A stretch of DNA of 64,000 nt from an uncultured bacterium. GTDB taxonomy: Bacteria; Cyanobacteriota; Vampirovibrionia; Gastranaerophilales; Gastranaerophilaceae. The stretch spans positions 12,216-76,215 of the forward strand of contig CATLLN010000006.1 of assembly GCA_950022695.1 (NCBI GenBank), given 5' to 3'. Shown in pieces: positions 16,291 through 62,209 of the stretch (positions are counted from its first letter, which is position 1; the number at the start of each line of letters is the position of its first letter). The translations under genes were made by a program, and so were the position numbers. A model generated the notes under the pieces. It was not told where the DNA came from. It saw only the letters and a program-made list of their open reading frames with translations, and did not search any database.

Positions 16291-17904
16291 ATGAGCAACA
16301 TACAATTTCAGAACGACTTAGACAGATTAGTTGAAATTCTGCCCGACAGGATTAGAAACCACATTGATTACCCTAAAATGGACGACGTAATAGAGATAGT
16401 GCTTGACATCGGACGACCGCCAGAAATTCGTCATGCGGACGGTAAGATTGAATACCTTGGTGCTTCTGAAATTACGTATGATGATATTTGCCATATAACA
16501 TCACGTGTTCAAGAATTTACCTCTGATAACCGCTCAGGTATTCCAGGAACACTTCACAGAATTAGTGCTATCAGAAACAGACAAGGAAAAGTTGTAGGTC
16601 TTACCTGTAGAATCGGCAGGGTTGTAACAGGAACTATCTCTTGTATAAAAGATATTTGTCTGCAAAACAAAAGTATATTATTTTTAGGCAGACCAGGAGT
16701 TGGAAAAACTACAAAACTCAGAGAGATTTCCCGCCTGGTTGCCGACGAACTTGGCAAAAGGGTTGTAATTGTAGATACATCAAACGAAATTGCAGGTGAC
16801 GGCGATACTCCGCACCCTGCAGTGGGTCATGCCAGAAGAATGCAGGTCAGACAGCCTGAATATCAAAAAGATATTATGATTGAAGCTGTCGAAAACCACA
16901 CCCCTGAAGTTATTGTTGTTGATGAAATCGGTACGGAAGCCGAAGCTCAAGCAGCAAGAACTATTGCAGAACGCGGGGTTATGTTAATCGCAACTGCACA
17001 CGGTAACAGCCTTGAAAGTTTGATTAAAAACCCTACATTATCAGATTTAGTCGGCGGTATTCAATCTGTTACTTTAGGTGATGATGAGGCAAAACGCCGC
17101 TCTTCACAAAAAACTGTTCTTGAACGTGAGAAACAGCCGACTTTCGATATCGTAATCGAAATTTTAGACAGAAATACCTTAGCGGTTTACAAAAACACAT
17201 CCGAAGCTGTAGATTATATTTTGCGAGGATGGCCAATCAGACCGGAACTTAGAAAAGTTGACAAAACTTACAGCTTCTCATCAGAACCGCCGGTTGAAAA
17301 AACTCCGACTGTTATCGACAAAATTAACGCACTTGATGAAAAAATCGAACATCCGGAAAGTTTGAAATTCAGCTTCTCAAGACAAAAGTATGTTGAAGAA
17401 GTTAAAAAATTCAAAAAAATATACCTCTATGCAGTTTCAAGAAGCATAGCAGAAAAAGTAATCGAACGACTTGATTTGAACGCTGAGATTACACGTAACC
17501 TTGATGATGCTAATATTGTAATCGCACACAAAAACTTTATCAAAGGCGGAGCAAAAGTTCTGTCAACTGCTGAAGAAAACAGATTACAAATATTCTATGT
17601 CAAAACAAATTCAATGGCACAAATTCAAAAAGTCATCAAAGAAGCTCTTGATATTGCAGAAGTAAACGAACGTCAAACCTTCTATGATATTACAGAAAAG
17701 GCACTTGATGAAGCAAAAACAGCTATTGAAAAAGTTCTTGCCGGTGCGGCAGATGTTGAATTAACCCCGCAAAACACACAAATAAGAAAATTACAGCACG
17801 AACTTGTTGAACAGCACAATCTTGAAAGTAAATCCATCGGCGAAGGCGACAACCGCCACCTGCGAATTGTTGGCGGAAAAGACTTCAAAGAAAAACTCGG
17901 CTAG
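16291..17904 (+). CDS. R3H-domain AAA+ ATPase (ycf45 / SpoIIIAA-like)
   Basis: Walker A GRPGVGKTT, Walker B VIVVDEIG, ATAHG sensor; C-terminal R3H-like RKLQHELVEQHNLESKSIGEGDNRHLRIV. Confidence 0.8.
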   Translation: MSNIQFQNDLDRLVEILPDRIRNHIDYPKMDDVIEIVLDIGRPPEIRHADGKIEYLGASEITYDDICHITSRVQEFTSDNRSGIPGTLHRISAIRNRQGKVVGLTCRIGRVVTGTISCIKDICLQNKSILFLGRPGVGKTTKLREISRLVADELGKRVVIVDTSNEIAGDGDTPHPAVGHARRMQVRQPEYQKDIMIEAVENHTPEVIVVDEIGTEAEAQAARTIAERGVMLIATAHGNSLESLIKNPTLSDLVGGIQSVTLGDDEAKRRSSQKTVLEREKQPTFDIVIEILDRNTLAVYKNTSEAVDYILRGWPIRPELRKVDKTYSFSSEPPVEKTPTVIDKINALDEKIEHPESLKFSFSRQKYVEEVKKFKKIYLYAVSRSIAEKVIERLDLNAEITRNLDDANIVIAHKNFIKGGAKVLSTAEENRLQIFYVKTNSMAQIQKVIKEALDIAEVNERQTFYDITEKALDEAKTAIEKVLAGAADVELTPQNTQIRKLQHELVEQHNLESKSIGEGDNRHLRIVGGKDFKEKLG

Positions 17905-18094
17905 GAAAGATAAATAATACCCAGTCAGTCAAGGACAATAGATTTGAACCCCTTTGAAAAGCGCGGAGAAACTACGTCATTCTTCCAAGTCTTTTTGAAG
18001 GGGTTCCCGTAATAAAAATACGCACAATAACAGAGCGAATAATCAATGTTTGTGAAACGATAAACACAAAACATTAAAAAATAATAAATTTCCC

Positions 18095-56661: not shown

Positions 56662-58365
56662 ATGAAGTTGATTAAATTATGGTATAATTTGAAAGAATTT
56701 GGAAATAAAAATGCAGATATTTTGACAGTTTTCGGATTAGCAATAATATTTTATTTCGTATTTTTTCACGGAATCGGAACATATTCTTTGATGGATGTCG
56801 ATGAAACAAGATATGTTGCAATGGCTCGGGATATGTTCTTATCAAAAGATTTTTTGACATTATATTTAAATGGTGAATATTTCTTTGAAAAACCACCTTT
56901 ATATTTTTGGCAGGAGTGTTTGTCTTTTGCTTTATTTGGTAAAATAAATGAATTTACTGCAAGATTTCCTGTAGCACTTTTAGGTTTTTTATTTTGTTTT
57001 GTTGTATATTTTACCTGCAAAAAAAGAATAAATAGAAGATTTGGTGTATTCACATCTTTAATTCTTGCCACATCTTTAGAATTTATCATGCTTGCAAAAT
57101 ATGCGATATTAGATATTGTTTTAACTTTTTATATCGGACTTGCTTTAGTTTGCTATTTTCAGATTTATTTTTGCAAAGAAAATCATAAAAAATTATATTG
57201 GTGGGCATTTTATGTATTTTCCGGACTTGCTGTTATGGCAAAAGGAATACCCGGATTTATAATACCATTTGGTACGGTATTTTTTACATCAATTATGGCT
57301 AAAAAATTTAAAGAAATTTTTAAACCATTATATTTTATACCCGGTGTAATTCTATTTTTATTAATTGTTCTTCCGTGGCATATTGTAATGTTGAATAAAT
57401 ATAATCCTTTATTTTTTGATGAGTATATTATAAAACATCATTTACATAGATTTTTAAATACTGAAAATAATGAAATTGGCAGAAAACAACCTTTTTATTA
57501 TTATCTTTCAGTTATTTTATGGGGATTTATTCCTTGGGTATTTTCAATGATAGCTGTTGCAATTGAAAAAATTAAAAATTGGGATAAACAAAAGTATGTT
57601 GAAAAAATAAGAAATTTTGATTTTGATAAACTTGATAATGTTCATAAAATGCTTGCTCTTTGTTGGGTAATGGTTGTTTTTATTGTACTGTTTTTCTCAA
57701 GTTCTTCAACAAAACTTGTAACTTATATTTTGCCTGTATATTATCCGCTAGCGATAATTATGGGGCTTGTTTGGATGGATTATGCAGATAGAAAAAAACA
57801 CGAAAAGCCAATCAATATTTCAGTTAAAATTTTTGGATGGTTTGCTGTAATAGCAGGAATTGCAGCAATGTTTACTCAATTTTATCTGCCGGCTCAAATT
57901 GAAGATGATATTGCTGAAATTAAATGGTTCAGCTTAATTTGTCTTTTGGTTTTTGGTGTAGGTACTTTATTACTTGTAAAATATAAAAAATATATTGGTG
58001 TATTTGTTTTTTATGTTTTATTTATGACTGTTGTTTCAGCCTTTGCAACAGAAGAATTTTTTGAAGTTGATTACAGATTTGGTCAAAGAGATTTGGTTCA
58101 GTTTGCAAAATATGCAAAAGAAAAAGATTATGCAATTTCGGCGTTTAAGCTTAATAGAAAATATTCACTACTGTATTATAATGACGAAAAAGTAGATTTT
58201 AATGAAAATTTAGAAATTAATTTAAAAACAGTTCAAGAAGATTTAAATAAAAAAGACAATGTTGTTGTTTTGAAAAACAAAGATATGATAAAAATAAAAG
58301 ATAAATTAAAATACAAAATTATCAAAACCGGGCGACGTTATACAATGATTAAAGGAATAAAATAG
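56662..58365 (+). CDS. GT39/GT83-type glycosyltransferase (ArnT / PMT-like, polyprenyl-phosphate-sugar dependent)
   Basis: ~12 TM helices; N-terminal loop DVDETRYVAMARDM and EKPPLYFW motifs. ATG 56662 follows GGAGA (the ORF track TTG 56650 is less likely). Confidence 0.8.
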   Translation: MKLIKLWYNLKEFGNKNADILTVFGLAIIFYFVFFHGIGTYSLMDVDETRYVAMARDMFLSKDFLTLYLNGEYFFEKPPLYFWQECLSFALFGKINEFTARFPVALLGFLFCFVVYFTCKKRINRRFGVFTSLILATSLEFIMLAKYAILDIVLTFYIGLALVCYFQIYFCKENHKKLYWWAFYVFSGLAVMAKGIPGFIIPFGTVFFTSIMAKKFKEIFKPLYFIPGVILFLLIVLPWHIVMLNKYNPLFFDEYIIKHHLHRFLNTENNEIGRKQPFYYYLSVILWGFIPWVFSMIAVAIEKIKNWDKQKYVEKIRNFDFDKLDNVHKMLALCWVMVVFIVLFFSSSSTKLVTYILPVYYPLAIIMGLVWMDYADRKKHEKPINISVKIFGWFAVIAGIAAMFTQFYLPAQIEDDIAEIKWFSLICLLVFGVGTLLLVKYKKYIGVFVFYVLFMTVVSAFATEEFFEVDYRFGQRDLVQFAKYAKEKDYAISAFKLNRKYSLLYYNDEKVDFNENLEINLKTVQEDLNKKDNVVVLKNKDMIKIKDKLKYKIIKTGRRYTMIKGIK

Positions 58366-58372
58366 AAAAATA

Positions 58373-58398
58373 AAAAGACCGAAAGAAATTTCGGTCTT
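58373..58398. terminator. bidirectional terminator
   Basis: AAAGACCGAAA-gaaa-TTTCGGTCTTT. Confidence 0.65.
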
Positions 58399-58428
58399 TA
58401 ATTAAAGATTTGCTTTTATTATAAAAAT

Positions 58429-58617
58429 TTATTTTACATCATCTTTAACAACAATCAAATTGTTCATAATTTTCATAGCACAAGTAGGAAGAACAACGTG
58501 TTCTAAACCATCAGCGATGCCGATAATTTTACCTGCTCCAAGAACAACTTCTTCACCTTTGTACATGAATTTGTAATCTGTTTTTCTGTCTGAACGAATA
58601 GTGATTTTTTCTGCCAT
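58429..58617 (-). CDS. hypothetical small protein
   Basis: 62-aa ORF upstream of nothing recognisable; predicted beta-rich; no family recognised. Confidence 0.45.
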   Translation of the reverse strand: MAEKITIRSDRKTDYKFMYKGEEVVLGAGKIIGIADGLEHVVLPTCAMKIMNNLIVVKDDVK

Positions 58618-58691
58618 AACAATTTGCCCCTTAAATACTGGTTACAGTAAGGAATTATAACTTATTTTCGAGCAAAAATCAAGTATTAAAT

Positions 58692-59933
58692 CTAAACTTC
58701 AAGCATTTTTACGCAGCAATTTCTGTCGACAGTTATTTGATTTCCTTTTTCAAGGTTTTTAATTGATACTTGATGTTTTAGGATTTCATCTTCACCTAAA
58801 ATAAATGCGTATTTAGCAACTTTTGAAGCTTTTTCAAGTTGTTTAGTGAATTTTTTGTTAGTTAAATCAAGTTCAACATTCAATCCCTGACTTCTTAATT
58901 CTTCGGCTAAAACAAAAGCATCGACAGGGAAGTTTGAAACAACATAACCATCAAGTTTTTTAGATTCTTTTTCAGGGAGTAGTGAAATCAATCTTTCCAT
59001 TCCCATTGCAAAACCTACAGCAGGTGTTGGTTCTCCGCCAAGCTGACCAACTAAGCTATCATATCTTCCGCCGCCGCAGACAGCGTTTTGTGAACCTAGA
59101 TTGTTTGATTTAATTTCAAAAACTGTTCTGTTGTAATAGTCTAAACCTCTTACAAGAAGTTTATTTTCACTGTATTTTACACCCATTTTATCAAGATATA
59201 ATTTTAATTCGGTATAATGTTCCGCGCATTCATCGCAAATAAAATCAGAATTAATAACTTCTTGAATTTCAGGTTTTTCAAATATTTTTTTGCAAGATTC
59301 AACTTTGCAATCTAAAAGTCTTAACGGATTTTTTTCGTATCTGTTCTGACAATCTTCGCAAAGCTCGTTAAAATAAGGTTTTAAAACTTCTTTTAACTTG
59401 TTTTTAAATTCTTCACGGCATTTTGGACAACCAAGCGAATTTATTTCGACATCCAAGTCATTCAAACCGATTGATTTTAAATAGTTAACTGCCATTAAAA
59501 TAACTTCAGCATCAGCAGTCGGTTGTTTTATACCAAACATTTCAACTCCAACTTGGTGGAATTGTCTTTGACGTCCGGCTTGCGGTCTTTCATAACGGAA
59601 CATTGGACCTTTATACCATAATTTAACAGGTGCTGAAAGTCTTGACATACCGTTTTCGATATAAGAACGAACTACACCGGCTGTGTTTTCCGGTCGAAGA
59701 GTAATTGATCTGTCACTTTTTTCAAAAGTGTACATTTCTTTGTTTACGATATCAGTTGTATCACCAACACCGCGTGAAAAAAGTTCTGTAACTTCAATTA
59801 TTGGTGTTCTGATTTCTTTGAAACCGTATTTAGAAAAAACTTCATCAGCTTTTTGTTCTATGAAATGCCACATATCAATATTTTGTGGCAAAATGTCTTT
59901 TGTTCCTTTTAAAACTTTTAAAATATTAGCCAT
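58692..59933 (-). CDS. hisS: histidine--tRNA ligase
   Basis: LKGTKDILP, FKEIRTPIIE, LRPENTAGVVR, MFRYERPQAGRQRQFHQ, CGGGRYD motifs. Confidence 0.95.
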   Translation of the reverse strand: MANILKVLKGTKDILPQNIDMWHFIEQKADEVFSKYGFKEIRTPIIEVTELFSRGVGDTTDIVNKEMYTFEKSDRSITLRPENTAGVVRSYIENGMSRLSAPVKLWYKGPMFRYERPQAGRQRQFHQVGVEMFGIKQPTADAEVILMAVNYLKSIGLNDLDVEINSLGCPKCREEFKNKLKEVLKPYFNELCEDCQNRYEKNPLRLLDCKVESCKKIFEKPEIQEVINSDFICDECAEHYTELKLYLDKMGVKYSENKLLVRGLDYYNRTVFEIKSNNLGSQNAVCGGGRYDSLVGQLGGEPTPAVGFAMGMERLISLLPEKESKKLDGYVVSNFPVDAFVLAEELRSQGLNVELDLTNKKFTKQLEKASKVAKYAFILGEDEILKHQVSIKNLEKGNQITVDRNCCVKMLEV

Positions 59934-60007
59934 AATTGAATTATATAATTTAAAGGCTCAAAGTCAAACATATTGACAAAAAGAAAAAAATAATAAATAA
60001 TATAATT

Positions 60008-60116
60008 GTAGGGCGAAGCTCCTAAGAACTAAGCTAACCTTAGAAGCTCCTCAACACCCTATAAAACTAGAAGTAAAATTTGTAAAATCGCTATCATTGC
60101 CGTGATGGCGATTTTT
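60008..60116 (+). ncRNA. candidate antisense (antitoxin-like) sRNA, cassette 1
   Basis: TTGACA (59973-59978)-N17-AATAAT (59996-60001). Intrinsic terminator 60084-60115 (13-bp stem with one U.G that would be A.C on the other strand) plus T-run. Fully antisense to the 3' part of ORF 60059-60136. Confidence 0.35.
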
Positions 60117-60136
60117 ACAATTAATCTAAGTTTCAT
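60059..60136 (-). CDS. 25-aa hydrophobic peptide, type I toxin-like
   Basis: Own translation: MKLRLIVKIAITAMIAILQILLLVL*. SD AAGGAGG 7 nt upstream; TAGACA-N17-TAATAT (with TG) promoter-like pair at 60214-60242. Confidence 0.45.
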   Translation of the reverse strand: MKLRLIVKIAITAMIAILQILLLVL

Positions 60137-60298
60137 AGATTCACCTCCTTTCTGACCAATTTCCTCAAAAAATTGTGTGTGTCAGTGGAAGCATGTATTC
60201 GCCCTATAGATAAATATTATCATGATTCGGTATTCTTGTCTATAAACTTAATAATATGTCAGATATTGATATCTTGACAAAACTAATGAAATAATAAA

Positions 60299-60428
60299 TA
60301 ATATAATTGTAGGGCGAGAGCCTTTAAGTTTTAGTCGGATTAAAGACTCTACTACGCACCCTACGGTTTAAATAATTTTAATGCTACTAAGAGTAAGTCG
60401 AATGCTATTAGTAGCATTATTATTTTAT
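60299..60428 (+). ncRNA. candidate antisense (antitoxin-like) sRNA, cassette 2
   Basis: TTGACA (60264-60269)-N17-AATAAT (60287-60292). Hairpin AATGCTACTA/TAGTAGCATT (60380-60418) followed by a T-rich tract. Antisense to ORF 60361-60435. Confidence 0.35.
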
Positions 60429-60435
60429 CAACCAT
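60361..60435 (-). CDS. 24-aa hydrophobic peptide, type I toxin-like
   Basis: Own translation: MVDKIIMLLIAFDLLLVALKLFKP*. SD AAGGAGG 9 nt upstream; TAGACA-N17-TAAAAT at 60513-60541. Confidence 0.45.
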   Translation of the reverse strand: MVDKIIMLLIAFDLLLVALKLFKP

Positions 60436-60611
60436 AGTTTAAGCCCTCCTTTCGTCCAATTTCTACGTAAATTGTGTGTGACGAAATGGCAGTGTGCCAA
60501 CCCTACGAACCAATTTTACAATAATATGTTATATTTGTCTATAAACTTAATAATAAGTCTGTATTTTTGCATTTTATTTCGTGATATAATCACTCAGAAA
60601 GGAGAGAATTT

Positions 60612-60995
60612 ATGAAATTATTACATACAATGATAAGGGTCAAAAATGCTGATGAGAGTGTAAAATTTTACACTGAACTTTTGAATATGAAACTTGATAA
60701 AAAGAAAAGATTAGATGATTGCTGGTTATATTTTTTGACAGATGAAGACGGTACAACACAGCTTGAACTTACAGCAAATGATGAAACACCTGAGAATGGT
60801 TATAATTTGGGTTCAGGATTCGGACATTTGGCATTTTCTGTGGAATCTTTGGATGAATTTACTGAAAAACTACACTCGCTTGGATATGAGTATCTTTATG
60901 AACCTTTTGATTTAAACGGAAAAGGTACAAAGATTGCTTTTGTTACAGATCCTGACGGTTATGAAATAGAGCTTATAGAAAAAGTTGTTTGGTAG
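60612..60995 (+). CDS. gloA: lactoylglutathione lyase (glyoxalase I, VOC family)
   Basis: LLHTMIRVKN...FY, ELT.N, GFGHLAF, DPDGYEIELIE motifs; SD AAAGGAGAG. Confidence 0.85.
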   Translation: MKLLHTMIRVKNADESVKFYTELLNMKLDKKKRLDDCWLYFLTDEDGTTQLELTANDETPENGYNLGSGFGHLAFSVESLDEFTEKLHSLGYEYLYEPFDLNGKGTKIAFVTDPDGYEIELIEKVVW

Positions 60996-61051
60996 TGCTT
61001 TGTAAGGGGTCAACTCTTGACAAAAGATGTAAAATCGTAAATAATAAAATA

Positions 61052-61132
61052 ACAGGGTGGTACCTTGAGAAAGTGCCGGAAACCTTGAGAAGACTATACG
61101 GTTCTTATCTGTTTAGATGAGAGCCGTTTTTT
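61052..61132 (+). ncRNA. candidate antisense (antitoxin-like) sRNA, cassette 3
   Basis: TTGACA (61017-61022)-N17-AATAAT (61040-61045), same layout as cassettes 1 and 2. Terminator 61098-61127 (13-bp stem with two U.G pairs that exist only on the plus strand) plus TTTTT. Confidence 0.35.
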
Positions 61133-61185
61133 AATATGTACAAAATCAAAAAGATTAAAAATAAAGTCAGATTGAAATTATCCAT
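61105..61185 (-). CDS. 26-aa hydrophobic peptide, type I toxin-like
   Basis: Own translation: MDNFNLTLFLIFLILYILKNGSHLNR*. SD AAGGGGG 5 nt upstream; TATAAT at 61283-61288 (minus). Confidence 0.4.
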   Translation of the reverse strand: MDNFNLTLFLIFLILYILKNGSHLNR

Positions 61186-61290
61186 ATCAGCCCCCTTTCT
61201 AGCCGGGAACCAACCCGAAGACTATACAATAATTGTCGGCTGGTTTCTTTAAGAAAAGGTCTCTTTTACCCTGTTAAATATTATTATAAT

Positions 61291-61566
61291 TTATTCATCA
61301 ATTAATGTAAAATTTTTACCGAGTTTATTTTCTAATTCTTTCATAAATTCTGAGGGTGTAATATCAAGAGCTTGTAATATTTTTAATAATGTAACAAATT
61401 TTATTTCTCCCAATCCTCGTTCAATTCTGCTTAAATTACTGTCATTTAAATCATATTCATCTGCGAATTTTTTACGGGAAATATATCCTTTTTTAATTCT
61501 AAGTTCTTTAATGTAAGAACCTAAAACAACCGCTAAATGTAAAGTTTTTTCAGAAATCTCTTGCAT
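61291..61566 (-). CDS. XRE-family HTH transcriptional regulator
   Basis: SRKKFADEYDLNDSNLSRIERG HTH core. Confidence 0.75.
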   Translation of the reverse strand: MQEISEKTLHLAVVLGSYIKELRIKKGYISRKKFADEYDLNDSNLSRIERGLGEIKFVTLLKILQALDITPSEFMKELENKLGKNFTLIDE

Positions 61567-61575
61567 TATCTTTTA

Positions 61576-61908
61576 TTATTTATTTAGTACAAAATCCGCA
61601 AATAATTTGAGAATATTTAAAATTAATTTTAAATATTTGCTTTCAAATTTATTTAACTCTTTTTCTATTGATTTAATTAATTGTTCATCAGTTTTGTTTT
61701 GTTCAAAATCAAATAATTCATAATAACTAACATCAAGTTTTGACGCAATCCGTTCTAATGTTTTAAAAGAGATTGTTCGTTTACCTGTTTCAATCAATCC
61801 AATAGTGGTTGGTTCAAGCCCAACAACCTCAGCAAACTGCTGTTGAGTCTGTTTTCTGCTTTCTCTTATTTCTTTTAATTTTTTTCCAAACAAAGTACTT
61901 AATGACAT
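61576..61908 (-). CDS. XRE-family HTH transcriptional regulator
   Basis: TQQQFAEVVGLEPTTIGLIETGKR HTH core with helical C-terminal extension. Confidence 0.75.
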   Translation of the reverse strand: MSLSTLFGKKLKEIRESRKQTQQQFAEVVGLEPTTIGLIETGKRTISFKTLERIASKLDVSYYELFDFEQNKTDEQLIKSIEKELNKFESKYLKLILNILKLFADFVLNK

Positions 61909-61999
61909 ATATTCATACTAATCGGTTATAAGTTTAGTTACTACTACCAATTAAGATATAAAATTTAACTAATTTTGTTAAGTTTTATGAATTAAATTA

Positions 62000-62209
62000 T
62001 TACGATTCTTCATTTACTTCGATTAAAATATCATTTATTTTACAATTAAAGAATTTTGCTATAGTTTCTAATGTCTTTAATTCATAATTATAGTATTTTC
62101 CGCTAAATAATTGACTTACAGTATTTTTACTTAAGCCAGTTTTATCAGCAATTTCTTCTTGTGTATATTTCTTTTTCCAACGAATATTATACAAATTAAC
62201 AATATACAT
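62000..62209 (-). CDS. XRE-family HTH transcriptional regulator (short, YozG-like)
   Basis: YTQEEIADKTGLSKNTVSQLFSGK; same architecture as 6140-6343. Confidence 0.7.
   Translation of the reverse strand: MYIVNLYNIRWKKKYTQEEIADKTGLSKNTVSQLFSGKYYNYELKTLETIAKFFNCKINDILIEVNEES

Follow-up and report, generated by a model that had tools for sequence, protein, structure and literature searches.

Background

A primary transcript that cannot be translated, either by sequestration of its Shine-Dalgarno (SD) sequence or by a long-distance interaction between its 5' and 3' ends, is a hallmark of toxin-antitoxin (TA) systems of type I (PMC6733600). Families in which the antisense RNA overlaps the mRNA on its 3' side are known, and so are interactions outside the overlap (PMC8594479, PMC4147584). 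Type I systems are regarded as narrowly distributed and poorly mobile (PMC5367252), and according to a 2025 paper, which adds one candidate from a photosynthetic cyanobacterium, they had previously been seen only in Proteobacteria, Firmicutes and Tenericutes (PMC12390103). A literature search found no paper linking type I TA systems with Melainabacteria. Here we describe cassettes of a tiny open reading frame (ORF) and a convergent antisense RNA in a 64 kb stretch of DNA (the window) from an uncultured member of the Gastranaerophilaceae (Melainabacteria). Two tandem units lie between hisS and the glyoxalase gene gloA, and a third follows gloA. Each is probably an independent gene that encodes a very small membrane peptide, is controlled by an antisense RNA and has the build of a type I toxin-antitoxin module. 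From their sequences the cassettes look like a candidate new type I TA family, and 'TA-like' is the term that fits the strength of this claim.

In predicted layout the cassettes are closest to the 3'-overlap families of Gram-positive bacteria (TxpA/RatA, BsrG/SR4), with a putative 5' contact like that of par and SprA1, a putative closing helix like that of hok and AapA, and peptides as short as Ibs. TxpA/RatA, BsrG/SR4, BsrE/SR5 and YonT/SR6 of Bacillus subtilis prophages likewise lie on a prophage or mobile element and have an antisense RNA on the 3' side, covering the 3' untranslated region (3'UTR) and part of the ORF. Their toxins have 38-59 amino acids (aa), are unrelated in sequence to the cassette peptides and occur in Firmicutes only. 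To our knowledge, neither a 5'-3' closing helix nor a leader-loop contact has been described for these four systems. RNase III-type decay, whether or not the structure at the SD also changes, is what these RNAs undergo (PMC8594479, PMC4147584, PMC5848175), and it would be the expected outcome for the cassettes too.

The par system (Fst RNA I/RNA II) of Enterococcus pAD1 and SprA1/SprA1AS of Staphylococcus aureus also consist of convergent, 3'-overlapping RNAs and a small hydrophobic peptide. They have extra complementarity near the ribosome-binding site in the 5' region of the mRNA (DRa/DRb in par; PMC4147584, PMC8594479), a role that a word in the leader loop would play in the cassettes. While the antisense RNA of Fst and SprA1 stays out of the ORF and the two RNAs share a bidirectional terminator, that of the cassettes is predicted to run into the ORF and each RNA has its own predicted terminator. 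Their peptides are about 30-33 aa, compared with 21-26 aa here; the host phylum differs, and the cassettes match no Pfam, NCBIfam or Rfam family. A 5' contact site is present, but the predicted overlap of the antisense RNA with the ORF places the cassettes outside the Fst/RNAII-SprA1 group.

AapA/IsoA of Helicobacter and hok/sok share with the cassettes module-specific paralogues and, by the predicted folds of the latter, an inert full-length mRNA with a 5'-3' interaction and anti-SD sequestration (PMC6733600). Their antisense RNA lies within the mRNA and targets its 5' part or translation-initiation region, while the predicted cassette antisense promoter is located downstream of the mRNA 3' end and its transcript enters the ORF from the 3' side. 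By this position the cassettes are not members of either group. Activation by 3' trimming has been shown for AapA/IsoA and hok/sok and is conjecture for the cassettes, and the toxins of these systems have 30-50 aa. Ibs/Sib of Enterobacteria likewise have very small hydrophobic peptides (18-19 aa), tandem multiple copies, diverged recognition regions and an antisense RNA over most or all of the ORF (PMC4147584). Sib, however, lies wholly inside the ibs transcript; the hosts are Proteobacteria, and the cassettes have no sequence or Rfam match to Ibs/Sib. MsoT1/MsoA1 of Microcystis aeruginosa is another type I candidate of Cyanobacteriota whose antisense RNA is complementary to the ORF 3' end and 3'UTR. 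As described (PMC12390103), MsoT1 has 63 aa with two predicted membrane helices and a photosynthetic host, which sets it apart from the cassette peptides of 21-26 aa with one helix, encoded by Melainabacteria, which are non-photosynthetic, and by phages of these.

Results and discussion

Two tandem cassettes between hisS and gloA

The spacer between hisS (58692-59933, minus strand) and gloA (60612-60995, plus strand) is 678 bp long, and gene callers predict nothing in it. An earlier reading of this DNA, made from the letters alone (the sequence-only reading), had noticed a tandem pair of units here, with a unit length of about 291 bp; the measured spacing is 299-301 bp. It had described the units as alike in layout but with little shared sequence. 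The common layout holds, but the transcribed parts are about 55-67% identical and therefore homologous. Two blocks, TTGACA..AAATAATAAATAATATAATTGTAGGGCGA and TTGTCTATAAACTTAATAATA, are 100% identical between the units, and two such matches were reached in 0/100 shuffles. The parts of the two units are as follows.

59973..60001, plus strand: unit 1 antisense-RNA promoter, TTGACA-17-AATAAT (promoter scan, 11/12 match)
60008..60118, plus strand: unit 1 predicted antisense RNA, about 110 nt, with inferred ends (fold z -5.4)
60059..60136, minus strand: unit 1 ORF, 25 aa, MKLRLIVKIAITAMIAILQILLLVL (SD GGAGG at 60144-60148; grand average of hydropathy (GRAVY) 2.19)
59990..60207, minus strand: unit 1 predicted mRNA (fold z -5.8)
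60214..60242, minus strand: unit 1 mRNA promoter, TAGACA-17-TAATAT (promoter scan), preceded by the conserved block TTATTATTAAGTTTA
60274..60302, plus strand: unit 2 antisense-RNA promoter, TTGACA-17-AATAAT (promoter scan, 11/12)
60309..60428, plus strand: unit 2 predicted antisense RNA, about 120 nt (fold z -3.7)
60361..60435, minus strand: unit 2 ORF, 24 aa, MVDKIIMLLIAFDLLLVALKLFKP (SD GGAGGG at 60444-60449)
60290..60506, minus strand: unit 2 predicted mRNA (fold z -5.2)
60513..60541, minus strand: unit 2 mRNA promoter, TAGACA-17-TAAAAT (promoter scan, 10/12)

The promoter-like pairs that had been read on both strands were recovered, TTGACA-17-AATAAT at 59973 and 60274 (plus) and TAGACA-17-TAATAT/TAAAAT at 60242 and 60541 (minus); in all, the scan gave 16 promoter-like sites compared with 4.5±1.7 in shuffles. 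The leader of about 70 nt, the strong SD and the 25- and 24-codon ORFs were also as proposed: the leader is 71 nt in both mRNAs, the SD sequences are AAGGAGG and GGAGGG, and the stated peptides are encoded. In the 64 kb, on both strands, these are the sole ATG-initiated ORFs of 16-50 codons with a strong SD and at least 60% hydrophobic residues.

By their z values, both predicted mRNAs and both predicted antisense RNAs are much more strongly folded than shuffles. In the predicted fold of the unit 1 mRNA, the 5' end UAGGGCGAA is paired with the 3' end UUCGCCCUA. A leader hairpin (60152-60185) presents the loop word UUGAGGA (60162-60168), which recurs in the 3'UTR (complement 60048-60054). The SD is engaged in an anti-SD pairing, GCUUCC:GGAGGU, a helix joins the start and stop regions, and the 3' domain lies at 60007-60062. 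The antisense RNA of unit 1 would form a 5' stem-loop with an open internal loop, CCUCAACA, and then a terminator hairpin with U5 (60080-60117) inside the ORF. Unit 2 has a leader hairpin with the apical loop ACGUAG (CGUAG at 60462-60467), a start/stop helix CUAUGGUU/AACCGUAG and a 3' domain at 60308-60364; its antisense RNA would end at the intra-ORF hairpin AAUGCUACUAA../..UUAGUAGCAUU, followed by a U-rich tract. The two units lie between divergent genes, and both are co-oriented with the downstream hisS.

A near-identical block, GAC[AT]TATTATTAAGTTTATAGACAA, spans and precedes the mRNA -35 hexamer at 60236-60260 and 60535-60559. It is also seen in a related contig (L024, about 600-625; such L numbers are used below where homologous loci must be told apart) and is partly kept in L025 and L035. 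The block could be an UP element or an operator.

Covariation supports the predicted mRNA fold

Covariation was counted as compensatory pairs and compared with shuffles, in a MAFFT alignment of six sequences and in alignments of nine and 17 sequences fitted to a covariance model.

MAFFT alignment, 6 sequences: 19/48 compensatory pairs; shuffles 10.7±2.1
Model-fitted alignment, 9 sequences: 27/52 compensatory pairs; shuffles 12.2±2.5
Model-fitted alignment, 17 sequences: 41/52 compensatory pairs; shuffles 24.6±2.4

In the 17-sequence alignment 0/500 shuffles reached the observed values, 91% of cells are paired, and the slid controls have 6-18 pairs. The MAFFT alignment, which is not fitted to the model, is in accord with this result. 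RNAalifold and the pair counts support eight helices in the mRNA. These include the helix that closes the 5' and 3' ends, a small 5' hairpin, a leader hairpin in two parts that stops just before the SD, the pairing of the start-codon and stop-codon regions, the intra-ORF hairpin and the 3' stem-loop. Thus the post-ORF and leader helices of the sequence-only reading are present in the predicted folds of both units and are supported by covariation. Its proposed complementarity of the mRNA 5' and 3' ends is likewise borne out by a covarying closing helix, but this helix is only about 6 bp in unit 2.

The ends of the mRNA change in a coordinated way. For 5' end, post-ORF motif and 3' end, UAGGGCG/UAGGGUG/CGCCCUA has become CAGGGUA/AAGGGUA/UACCCUA in L024, and unit 3 has ACAGGGU/ACCCUGU as its counterpart of the closing-helix covariation. 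This joint change of three segments supports two alternative pairings for the mRNA 3' end. Of these, the 5'-3' helix is the one seen in the minimum-energy fold of most cassettes; for L024 and L025 that fold has the local 3' stem instead. L007 keeps the pairing element ACCGUAG, although its stop codon is shifted. Compensatory changes in the intra-ORF hairpin alter the peptide sequence in L007 and L025.

A putative second contact between antisense RNA and leader loop

The leader hairpin has in its apical loop a word that is found again in the 3'UTR, directly behind the post-ORF GGGU motif. Since it is repeated in the 3'UTR, this word is complementary to an internal loop in the antisense RNA. It is not the same in all cassettes, and its copies covary: UUGAGGA, CGUAG, CGAAG, CAGAG(A), CGAAGAAA, UAUGGAG (with G·U), UGUGAAG, UACUAAG, UACGAAG and AACGGUGUAA. 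In 22 cassettes the pairing score of leader loop and cognate antisense RNA was 349, compared with 306±12 for permuted partners (p≈0.0007); smaller cassette sets gave p values of 0.007-0.024. The contact site is constantly found at leader positions ~39-47. RNAduplex, applied to the whole antisense RNA and the whole leader, allowed long internal loops. In a phage copy the 7-nt word is UACGAAG, and the fold leaves the antisense loop UUCGUA open. The cassettes that were added once the match had been proposed mostly agree with it (L035, Dulem, L052, L061, L044, L058 and L065). A second contact between mRNA and antisense RNA in the leader loop, next to the SD, which the sequence-only reading had missed along with the link to phages, is therefore a well-supported inference from these sequences.

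Assignment of the hairpins to strands

In 7/7 of the U1/U2-type cassettes that were analysed first, the mRNA strand is favoured for the 3' domain, by 2.4-9.7 kcal/mol, because of G·U pairs. For the intra-ORF hairpin of the same 7/7 it is the antisense strand that is favoured, by 1.6-6.4 kcal/mol, and a U-rich tract follows it there. The stability of this hairpin is -19.6 (antisense) compared with -14.1 kcal/mol (mRNA strand) in unit 1, and -17.9 compared with -14.8 kcal/mol on the two strands in unit 2. The G·U asymmetry first noticed in units 1 and 2 thus holds in both directions across the seven cassettes. By these energies the 3' domain belongs to the predicted mRNA and the intra-ORF hairpin to the antisense RNA, as its putative terminator. 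The hairpin and T-run had been read as such a terminator before; the strand preference agrees with that, but a simple terminator scan does not flag them.

Across homologues the hexamers of the antisense promoter and the interval between it and the TAGGG start stay the same, while the 17-nt spacer is free to vary, which is promoter-like behaviour. In distant members the promoter reads TTGATT/TTGAAT-16/17-TATAAT. The mRNA -35 hexamer is TAGACA, not TTGACA, in most members: U2, L024, L014 (TAGACT), L054, L052, L061, L045, L043 and the Dulem phage.

The encoded peptides

A start codon and an open frame are kept in 23/23 cassettes; the start is ATG, with GTG in L063_14158. An SD at the correct spacing is present in 22/23, across classes with little ORF identity, the exception being L023b. 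The ORFs have 21-32 codons and fall into three or more sequence classes. Most products are a single hydrophobic helix of 21-26 aa with a short polar N-terminus and the motif A-x-L-[KQ]-[IL], and GRAVY is 1.5-2.3 in 18/23. Peptides homologous to that of unit 1 are found in L024, Dulem virus 31, L065, L045 and L047, and the unit 2 peptide has many MV[DE]KIIMLLL.. homologues. Unit 2 and L014 encode an identical peptide, and the only two changes in the ORF are synonymous. The conserved N-terminus MVDKIIM is encoded by the antisense U-tract. Since RNA elements overlap the ORF in this way, selection on the peptide is not cleanly separable from constraint on the RNA. Some cassettes on phages carry a different payload on the same scaffold, namely 28-32-aa amphipathic or charged peptides (MSLLLFQLFDLLVKKYKEKAPELELLELFLKS and MTLLLETIIKALVVLELLAKLILAIIEM; L058 6893-7122, L048 6041-6270 and L043 5004-5219).

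As the sequence-only reading had suspected, the peptides are outside the named toxin families. Searches with six peptides gave no Pfam or NCBIfam family at E<=10, including Hok/Gef, Ldr, Fst, Ibs, TisB, TxpA and others, and PHROGs gave only one chance-level match. Known antitoxin RNA models (Sok, Sib, RdlD, IstR, OhsC, RatA, SR4-type, RNAII/SprA1AS and others) do not match. Rfam has no relevant match to 58000-62000 even at E<=10, where 'mir-450', 'pan' and the like are chance matches below threshold; in the whole window only one tRNA reaches the gathering score.

A third, diverged cassette downstream of gloA

The sequence-only reading had missed a third cassette directly after gloA (about 61017-61311), which was found from a weak nhmmer profile match to the promoter block. 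Its parts are given below.

61017..61045, plus strand: unit 3 antisense-RNA promoter, TTGACA-17-AATAAT (weak nhmmer match to the promoter block)
61052..61133, plus strand: unit 3 predicted antisense RNA, about 80 nt (fold z -4.5)
61105..61185, minus strand: unit 3 ORF, 26 aa, MDNFNLTLFLIFLILYILKNGSHLNR (SD GGGGG at 61191-61195, within AAAGGGGG)
61040..61275, minus strand: unit 3 predicted mRNA (closing helix of 5' AACAGGGU with 3' ACCCUGUU)
61283..61311, minus strand: unit 3 mRNA promoter, TTTACA-17-TATAAT (read from the sequence; overlaps the end of the upstream helix-turn-helix (HTH) gene)

The predicted antisense RNA of unit 3 folds into a 5' hairpin and a canonical terminator (61099-61132, 13-bp stem with U6), joined by the single-stranded linker GAAGACUAUAC (61089-61099). 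It would cover only the last ~29 nt of the ORF, compared with most of the ORF in the U1/U2 types. The 11-nt word GUAUAGUCUUC is present both in the leader (61217-61227) and in the 3'UTR (61089-61099), a repeat with p~0.001, so the antisense linker can pair with the leader. The cognate helix is 14 bp and ranks 1/22 among the antisense partners of the cassettes. The antisense promoter sequence of unit 3 also heads the decayed copy L023b at the orthologous site. The covariance model used (R1) does not detect unit 3, and the survey covers cassettes other than U3-type relatives.

Between unit 3 and aroA (61291-62209, minus strand) there are three tandem HTH genes of the XRE family (91, 110 and 69 aa) and a 154-aa ORF. 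This block is absent at the related L016 locus. In L025 a cassette directly adjoins an HTH_3 gene, and a fragment of an HTH gene is adjacent to L023b. The block may be a small variable island or may consist of cassette-linked regulators.

Homologous cassettes are gained, lost and recombined

More than 20 homologous cassettes were found, on contigs of Gastranaerophilaceae and on phages. They keep the ORF and SD, both promoters with fixed hexamers and variable spacers, and all the proposed helices, in agreement with the type I TA-like anatomy first read from the window. A covariance model of relatives had been suggested as a check, and the homologous loci preserve both the ORF and the compensatory stem changes.

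Contigs of HisS relatives have 0, 1 or 2 copies at the hisS-proximal site, with two in the window species. The strain with 98% HisS identity (L023/L024) has one U1-like copy there and a decayed copy after gloA, and species with 92-93% HisS identity (L025, L035, L036, L038) have other cassette variants. L016/L017 have a gloA-hisS spacer of just 75 bp that is empty of a cassette; the HisS relatives L016-22, L026, L033 and L034 have no cassette. The loss of the SD and an 8-nt deletion in the antisense promoter spacer of L023b imply that both partners have decayed. Other contexts include the neighbourhood of a nifU-like gene in a 'Candidatus Melainabacteria' metagenome-assembled genome (L007) and another metagenome (L014). 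By this distribution the cassettes are gained and lost as units and are mobile.

Three copies appear chimeric. L025 415-607 combines a U2-type ORF with a U1-type 3' stem, L038 1855-2049 an L025-type 5' half with an L035-type 3' half, and L044 1507-1732 a 5' half of the L058 type with a 3' domain of the L045 type, its ORF end being shifted. From these sequences the cassette modules may recombine; assembly chimeras are possible for Logan and IMG contigs. L023 8936-9186 and L063 14158-14377 are longer by ~75-125 nt, located either in the leader or in the interval from the SD position to the ATG, and they are either decaying copies or carry a small insertion.

A plasmid search (blastn, distant mode) gave no match. 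The exact 19-mer TAATATAATTGTAGGGCGA, whose GCGA part is not conserved, had one true match in genome contigs and two in metagenome contigs, the rest being chance matches. A viral scan with TTGTAGGGCGA..CACCCTA gave chance matches only, and one with TAAATAATATAWWTGTAGGG gave none. An exact look-up of GloA matched the same species only. The glyoxalase of L023 (9234-9749) is a 171-aa product in some assemblies (P0141, 240 contigs), compared with 127 aa elsewhere; its N-terminal extension, which reaches into the cassette spacer, is probably an annotation artefact. A leader or attenuator of hisS was rejected as an explanation for the units, as relatives share the hisS promoter without having a cassette. 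A miniature inverted-repeat transposable element was also rejected, since neither terminal inverted repeats nor a target duplication was seen.

Cassettes on temperate phages

A blastn search of GenBank phages matched 'Dulem virus 31' (PP511318.1 = L040), which is circular and 35.8 kb long. It has genes for terminase, portal, tail sheath, baseplate J, tape measure and a CI repressor, a gene content that implies a temperate tailed phage mislabelled as Microviridae. One complete cassette (17878-18081) lies between tail-fibre-like genes and the holin/endolysin module. Its annotation has the spurious small coding sequences XCD03072.1 and XCD03102.1 over the cassette and misses the 24-aa ORF.

In IMG/VR at least 13 more cassettes were found on at least 12 phage contigs, with two promoter-based patterns and then the covariance model. 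Their neighbours are endolysin, tape-measure, baseplate and sheath genes. In 7/8 phage contexts (L052, L054, L045, L047, L063, L044 and L040, with L061 as the exception) the peptide mRNA is co-oriented with the flanking late tail or lysis genes, so that the antisense promoter would fire against late transcription. From their contexts, the cassettes are best described as inserts of two kinds, moron-like in the tailed temperate phages that infect gut Melainabacteria, variable and intergenic in the chromosomes of the hosts.

Proposed mechanism

In the proposed mechanism, a minus-strand promoter of moderate strength (TAGACA as -35) would make an mRNA of about 200 nt whose ends are shut by the 5'-3' helix. 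With the AUG paired to the stop-codon region, and the SD or its spacer paired to an upstream anti-SD, the primary transcript is predicted to be poorly translatable. A near-consensus convergent promoter just past the mRNA 3' end would make an antisense RNA of about 80-120 nt, stopping at the intra-ORF hairpin and U-tract. This RNA would be fully complementary to the 3' domain of the mRNA and most of the ORF, and its internal loop or linker would also pair with the apical leader loop just upstream of the SD. Its binding would block translation, and the long duplex would be open to RNase III-type decay. The peptide, usually one transmembrane helix of 21-26 aa, would if made insert in the membrane and depolarise or damage it. 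The mRNA might be unlocked by 3' trimming as in hok and aapA, or by read-through from the late operons of a phage, which would alter the 5' context and disturb the antisense promoter. Candidate roles are stabilisation of a prophage or locus, exclusion and help with lysis.

A bolder form of this mechanism, which we put forward as tentative and rather doubtful, is a modular, phage-spread RNA 'expression lock'. Its conserved scaffold, an mRNA closed by the 5'-3' helix and a convergent antisense RNA that recognises it both at the 3' domain and at a programmable leader loop, would carry interchangeable micro-peptides, either membrane peptides of one helix or charged amphipathic ones. Recombination would swap 5' half, ORF and 3' stem between copies. 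In phages of Melainabacteria, late-operon read-through would override the lock and fire the peptide at lysis or superinfection. The primary role of such a TA-like system would be in the phage life cycle, and its two-site specificity would evolve by coordinated change of three RNA segments.

Alternative explanations

Three features expected of a type I system are found in the cassettes. A small (<60 aa) hydrophobic peptide ORF with translation signals is present. At the sequence level there is a separate antisense RNA gene, with a promoter, a G·U-stabilised hairpin with U-tract and leader-loop covariation. Predicted folds and covariation (5'-3', start/stop and anti-SD pairings) point to a primary transcript that is not translatable, with weaker SD sequestration in unit 2.

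Several observations weigh against a type I TA-like module as described here. All transcript ends are placed from consensus motifs. The minimum-energy fold of unit 2 leaves the SD largely unpaired, and SD sequestration is uneven across cassettes. The mRNA 3' stem has no U-run directly following it, and the intra-ORF hairpins of units 1 and 2, passed over by the terminator scan, would be weak antisense terminators. The covariation counts overstate independence, because the sequences are related and the model-fitted alignments lean to the model. In most cassettes the leader loop has a complementarity of just 4-8 bp, with a semi-conserved GAAG core; a longest-common-word test on single cassettes was not significant except in U3, and the evident recombinants L038 and L044_1507 break the match. 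The peptides are below the length of most type I toxins and have no usual charged C-terminal tail, and the charged or amphipathic ORF MSLLLFQLFDLLVKKYKEKAPELELLELFLKS (GRAVY 0.4) in some members implies that the scaffold is not bound to one peptide.

The alternative that survives best, and is nonetheless unlikely, is that the cassette encodes a small membrane peptide which is under antisense control but has no toxic effect. It might be a phage moron micro-protein for lysis timing, superinfection block or action on a host membrane complex, with RNA control setting the timing and not preventing self-killing. The co-orientation of the mRNA with late genes in 7/8 phage contexts, often beside the endolysin/holin module, fits such a function, as do peptides of just 21-26 aa without charged tails and payloads that vary and are in some cases amphipathic and not transmembrane. 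However, chromosomal copies stand alone with their own promoters, far from lysis genes. Tandem multi-copy cassettes with diverged recognition stems and the joint decay of both partners in L023b also speak against it, and a multiply locked mRNA is a combination known for toxic products (PMC6733600). This alternative departs from a TA-like module only in the effect of the peptide.

We consider it very unlikely that the cassette is a structured non-coding RNA pair, or a phage-derived bidirectional terminator or insulator, with an incidental and untranslated ORF. Constraint on the RNA would explain much of the ORF conservation, as seen in the covarying intra-ORF hairpin and start/stop helix, in MVDKIIM as the product of the antisense U-tract, and in L007 with its moved stop codon and retained ACCGUAG element; the plus-strand terminator of unit 3 could also terminate gloA. 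Such an RNA does not call for the SD at the right spacing, start codon and open frame that are kept together in 22/23 cassettes of classes sharing little ORF sequence, and the exception, L023b, is also altered in its antisense promoter spacing. The products are overwhelmingly hydrophobic helices, and no other SD-preceded hydrophobic small ORF occurs in the 64 kb. Units 1 and 2, moreover, lie between divergent genes, where a terminator is not needed. Finally, a chance pattern in AT-rich intergenic DNA, where promoter-like hexamers and short hairpins are common, or a functionless duplicated spacer, is effectively refuted by the 41/52 covarying pairs and the more than 20 homologues in different genomes and phages, in addition to fold z-scores of -3.7 to -5.8 and conserved blocks absent from 100 shuffles.

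Conclusions

ORFs of less than 30 aa are rarely called by gene callers. The cassettes are invisible to current annotation, with either no calls or spurious ORFs as in PP511318.1. If the type I TA-like reading is true, they would form a new family of the uncultivated Melainabacteria of the gut, and its peptides would rank with the shortest known. Their carriage by tailed temperate phages is clear. Their points of interest are the carriage by phages, the modular recombination and the strength of natural covariation. Since the RNA architecture is unusually well supported by covariation, through the three-way switch of 5' end, post-ORF motif and 3' end and the covarying second contact, the family could be a model for the joint evolution of antisense specificity and mRNA locking.

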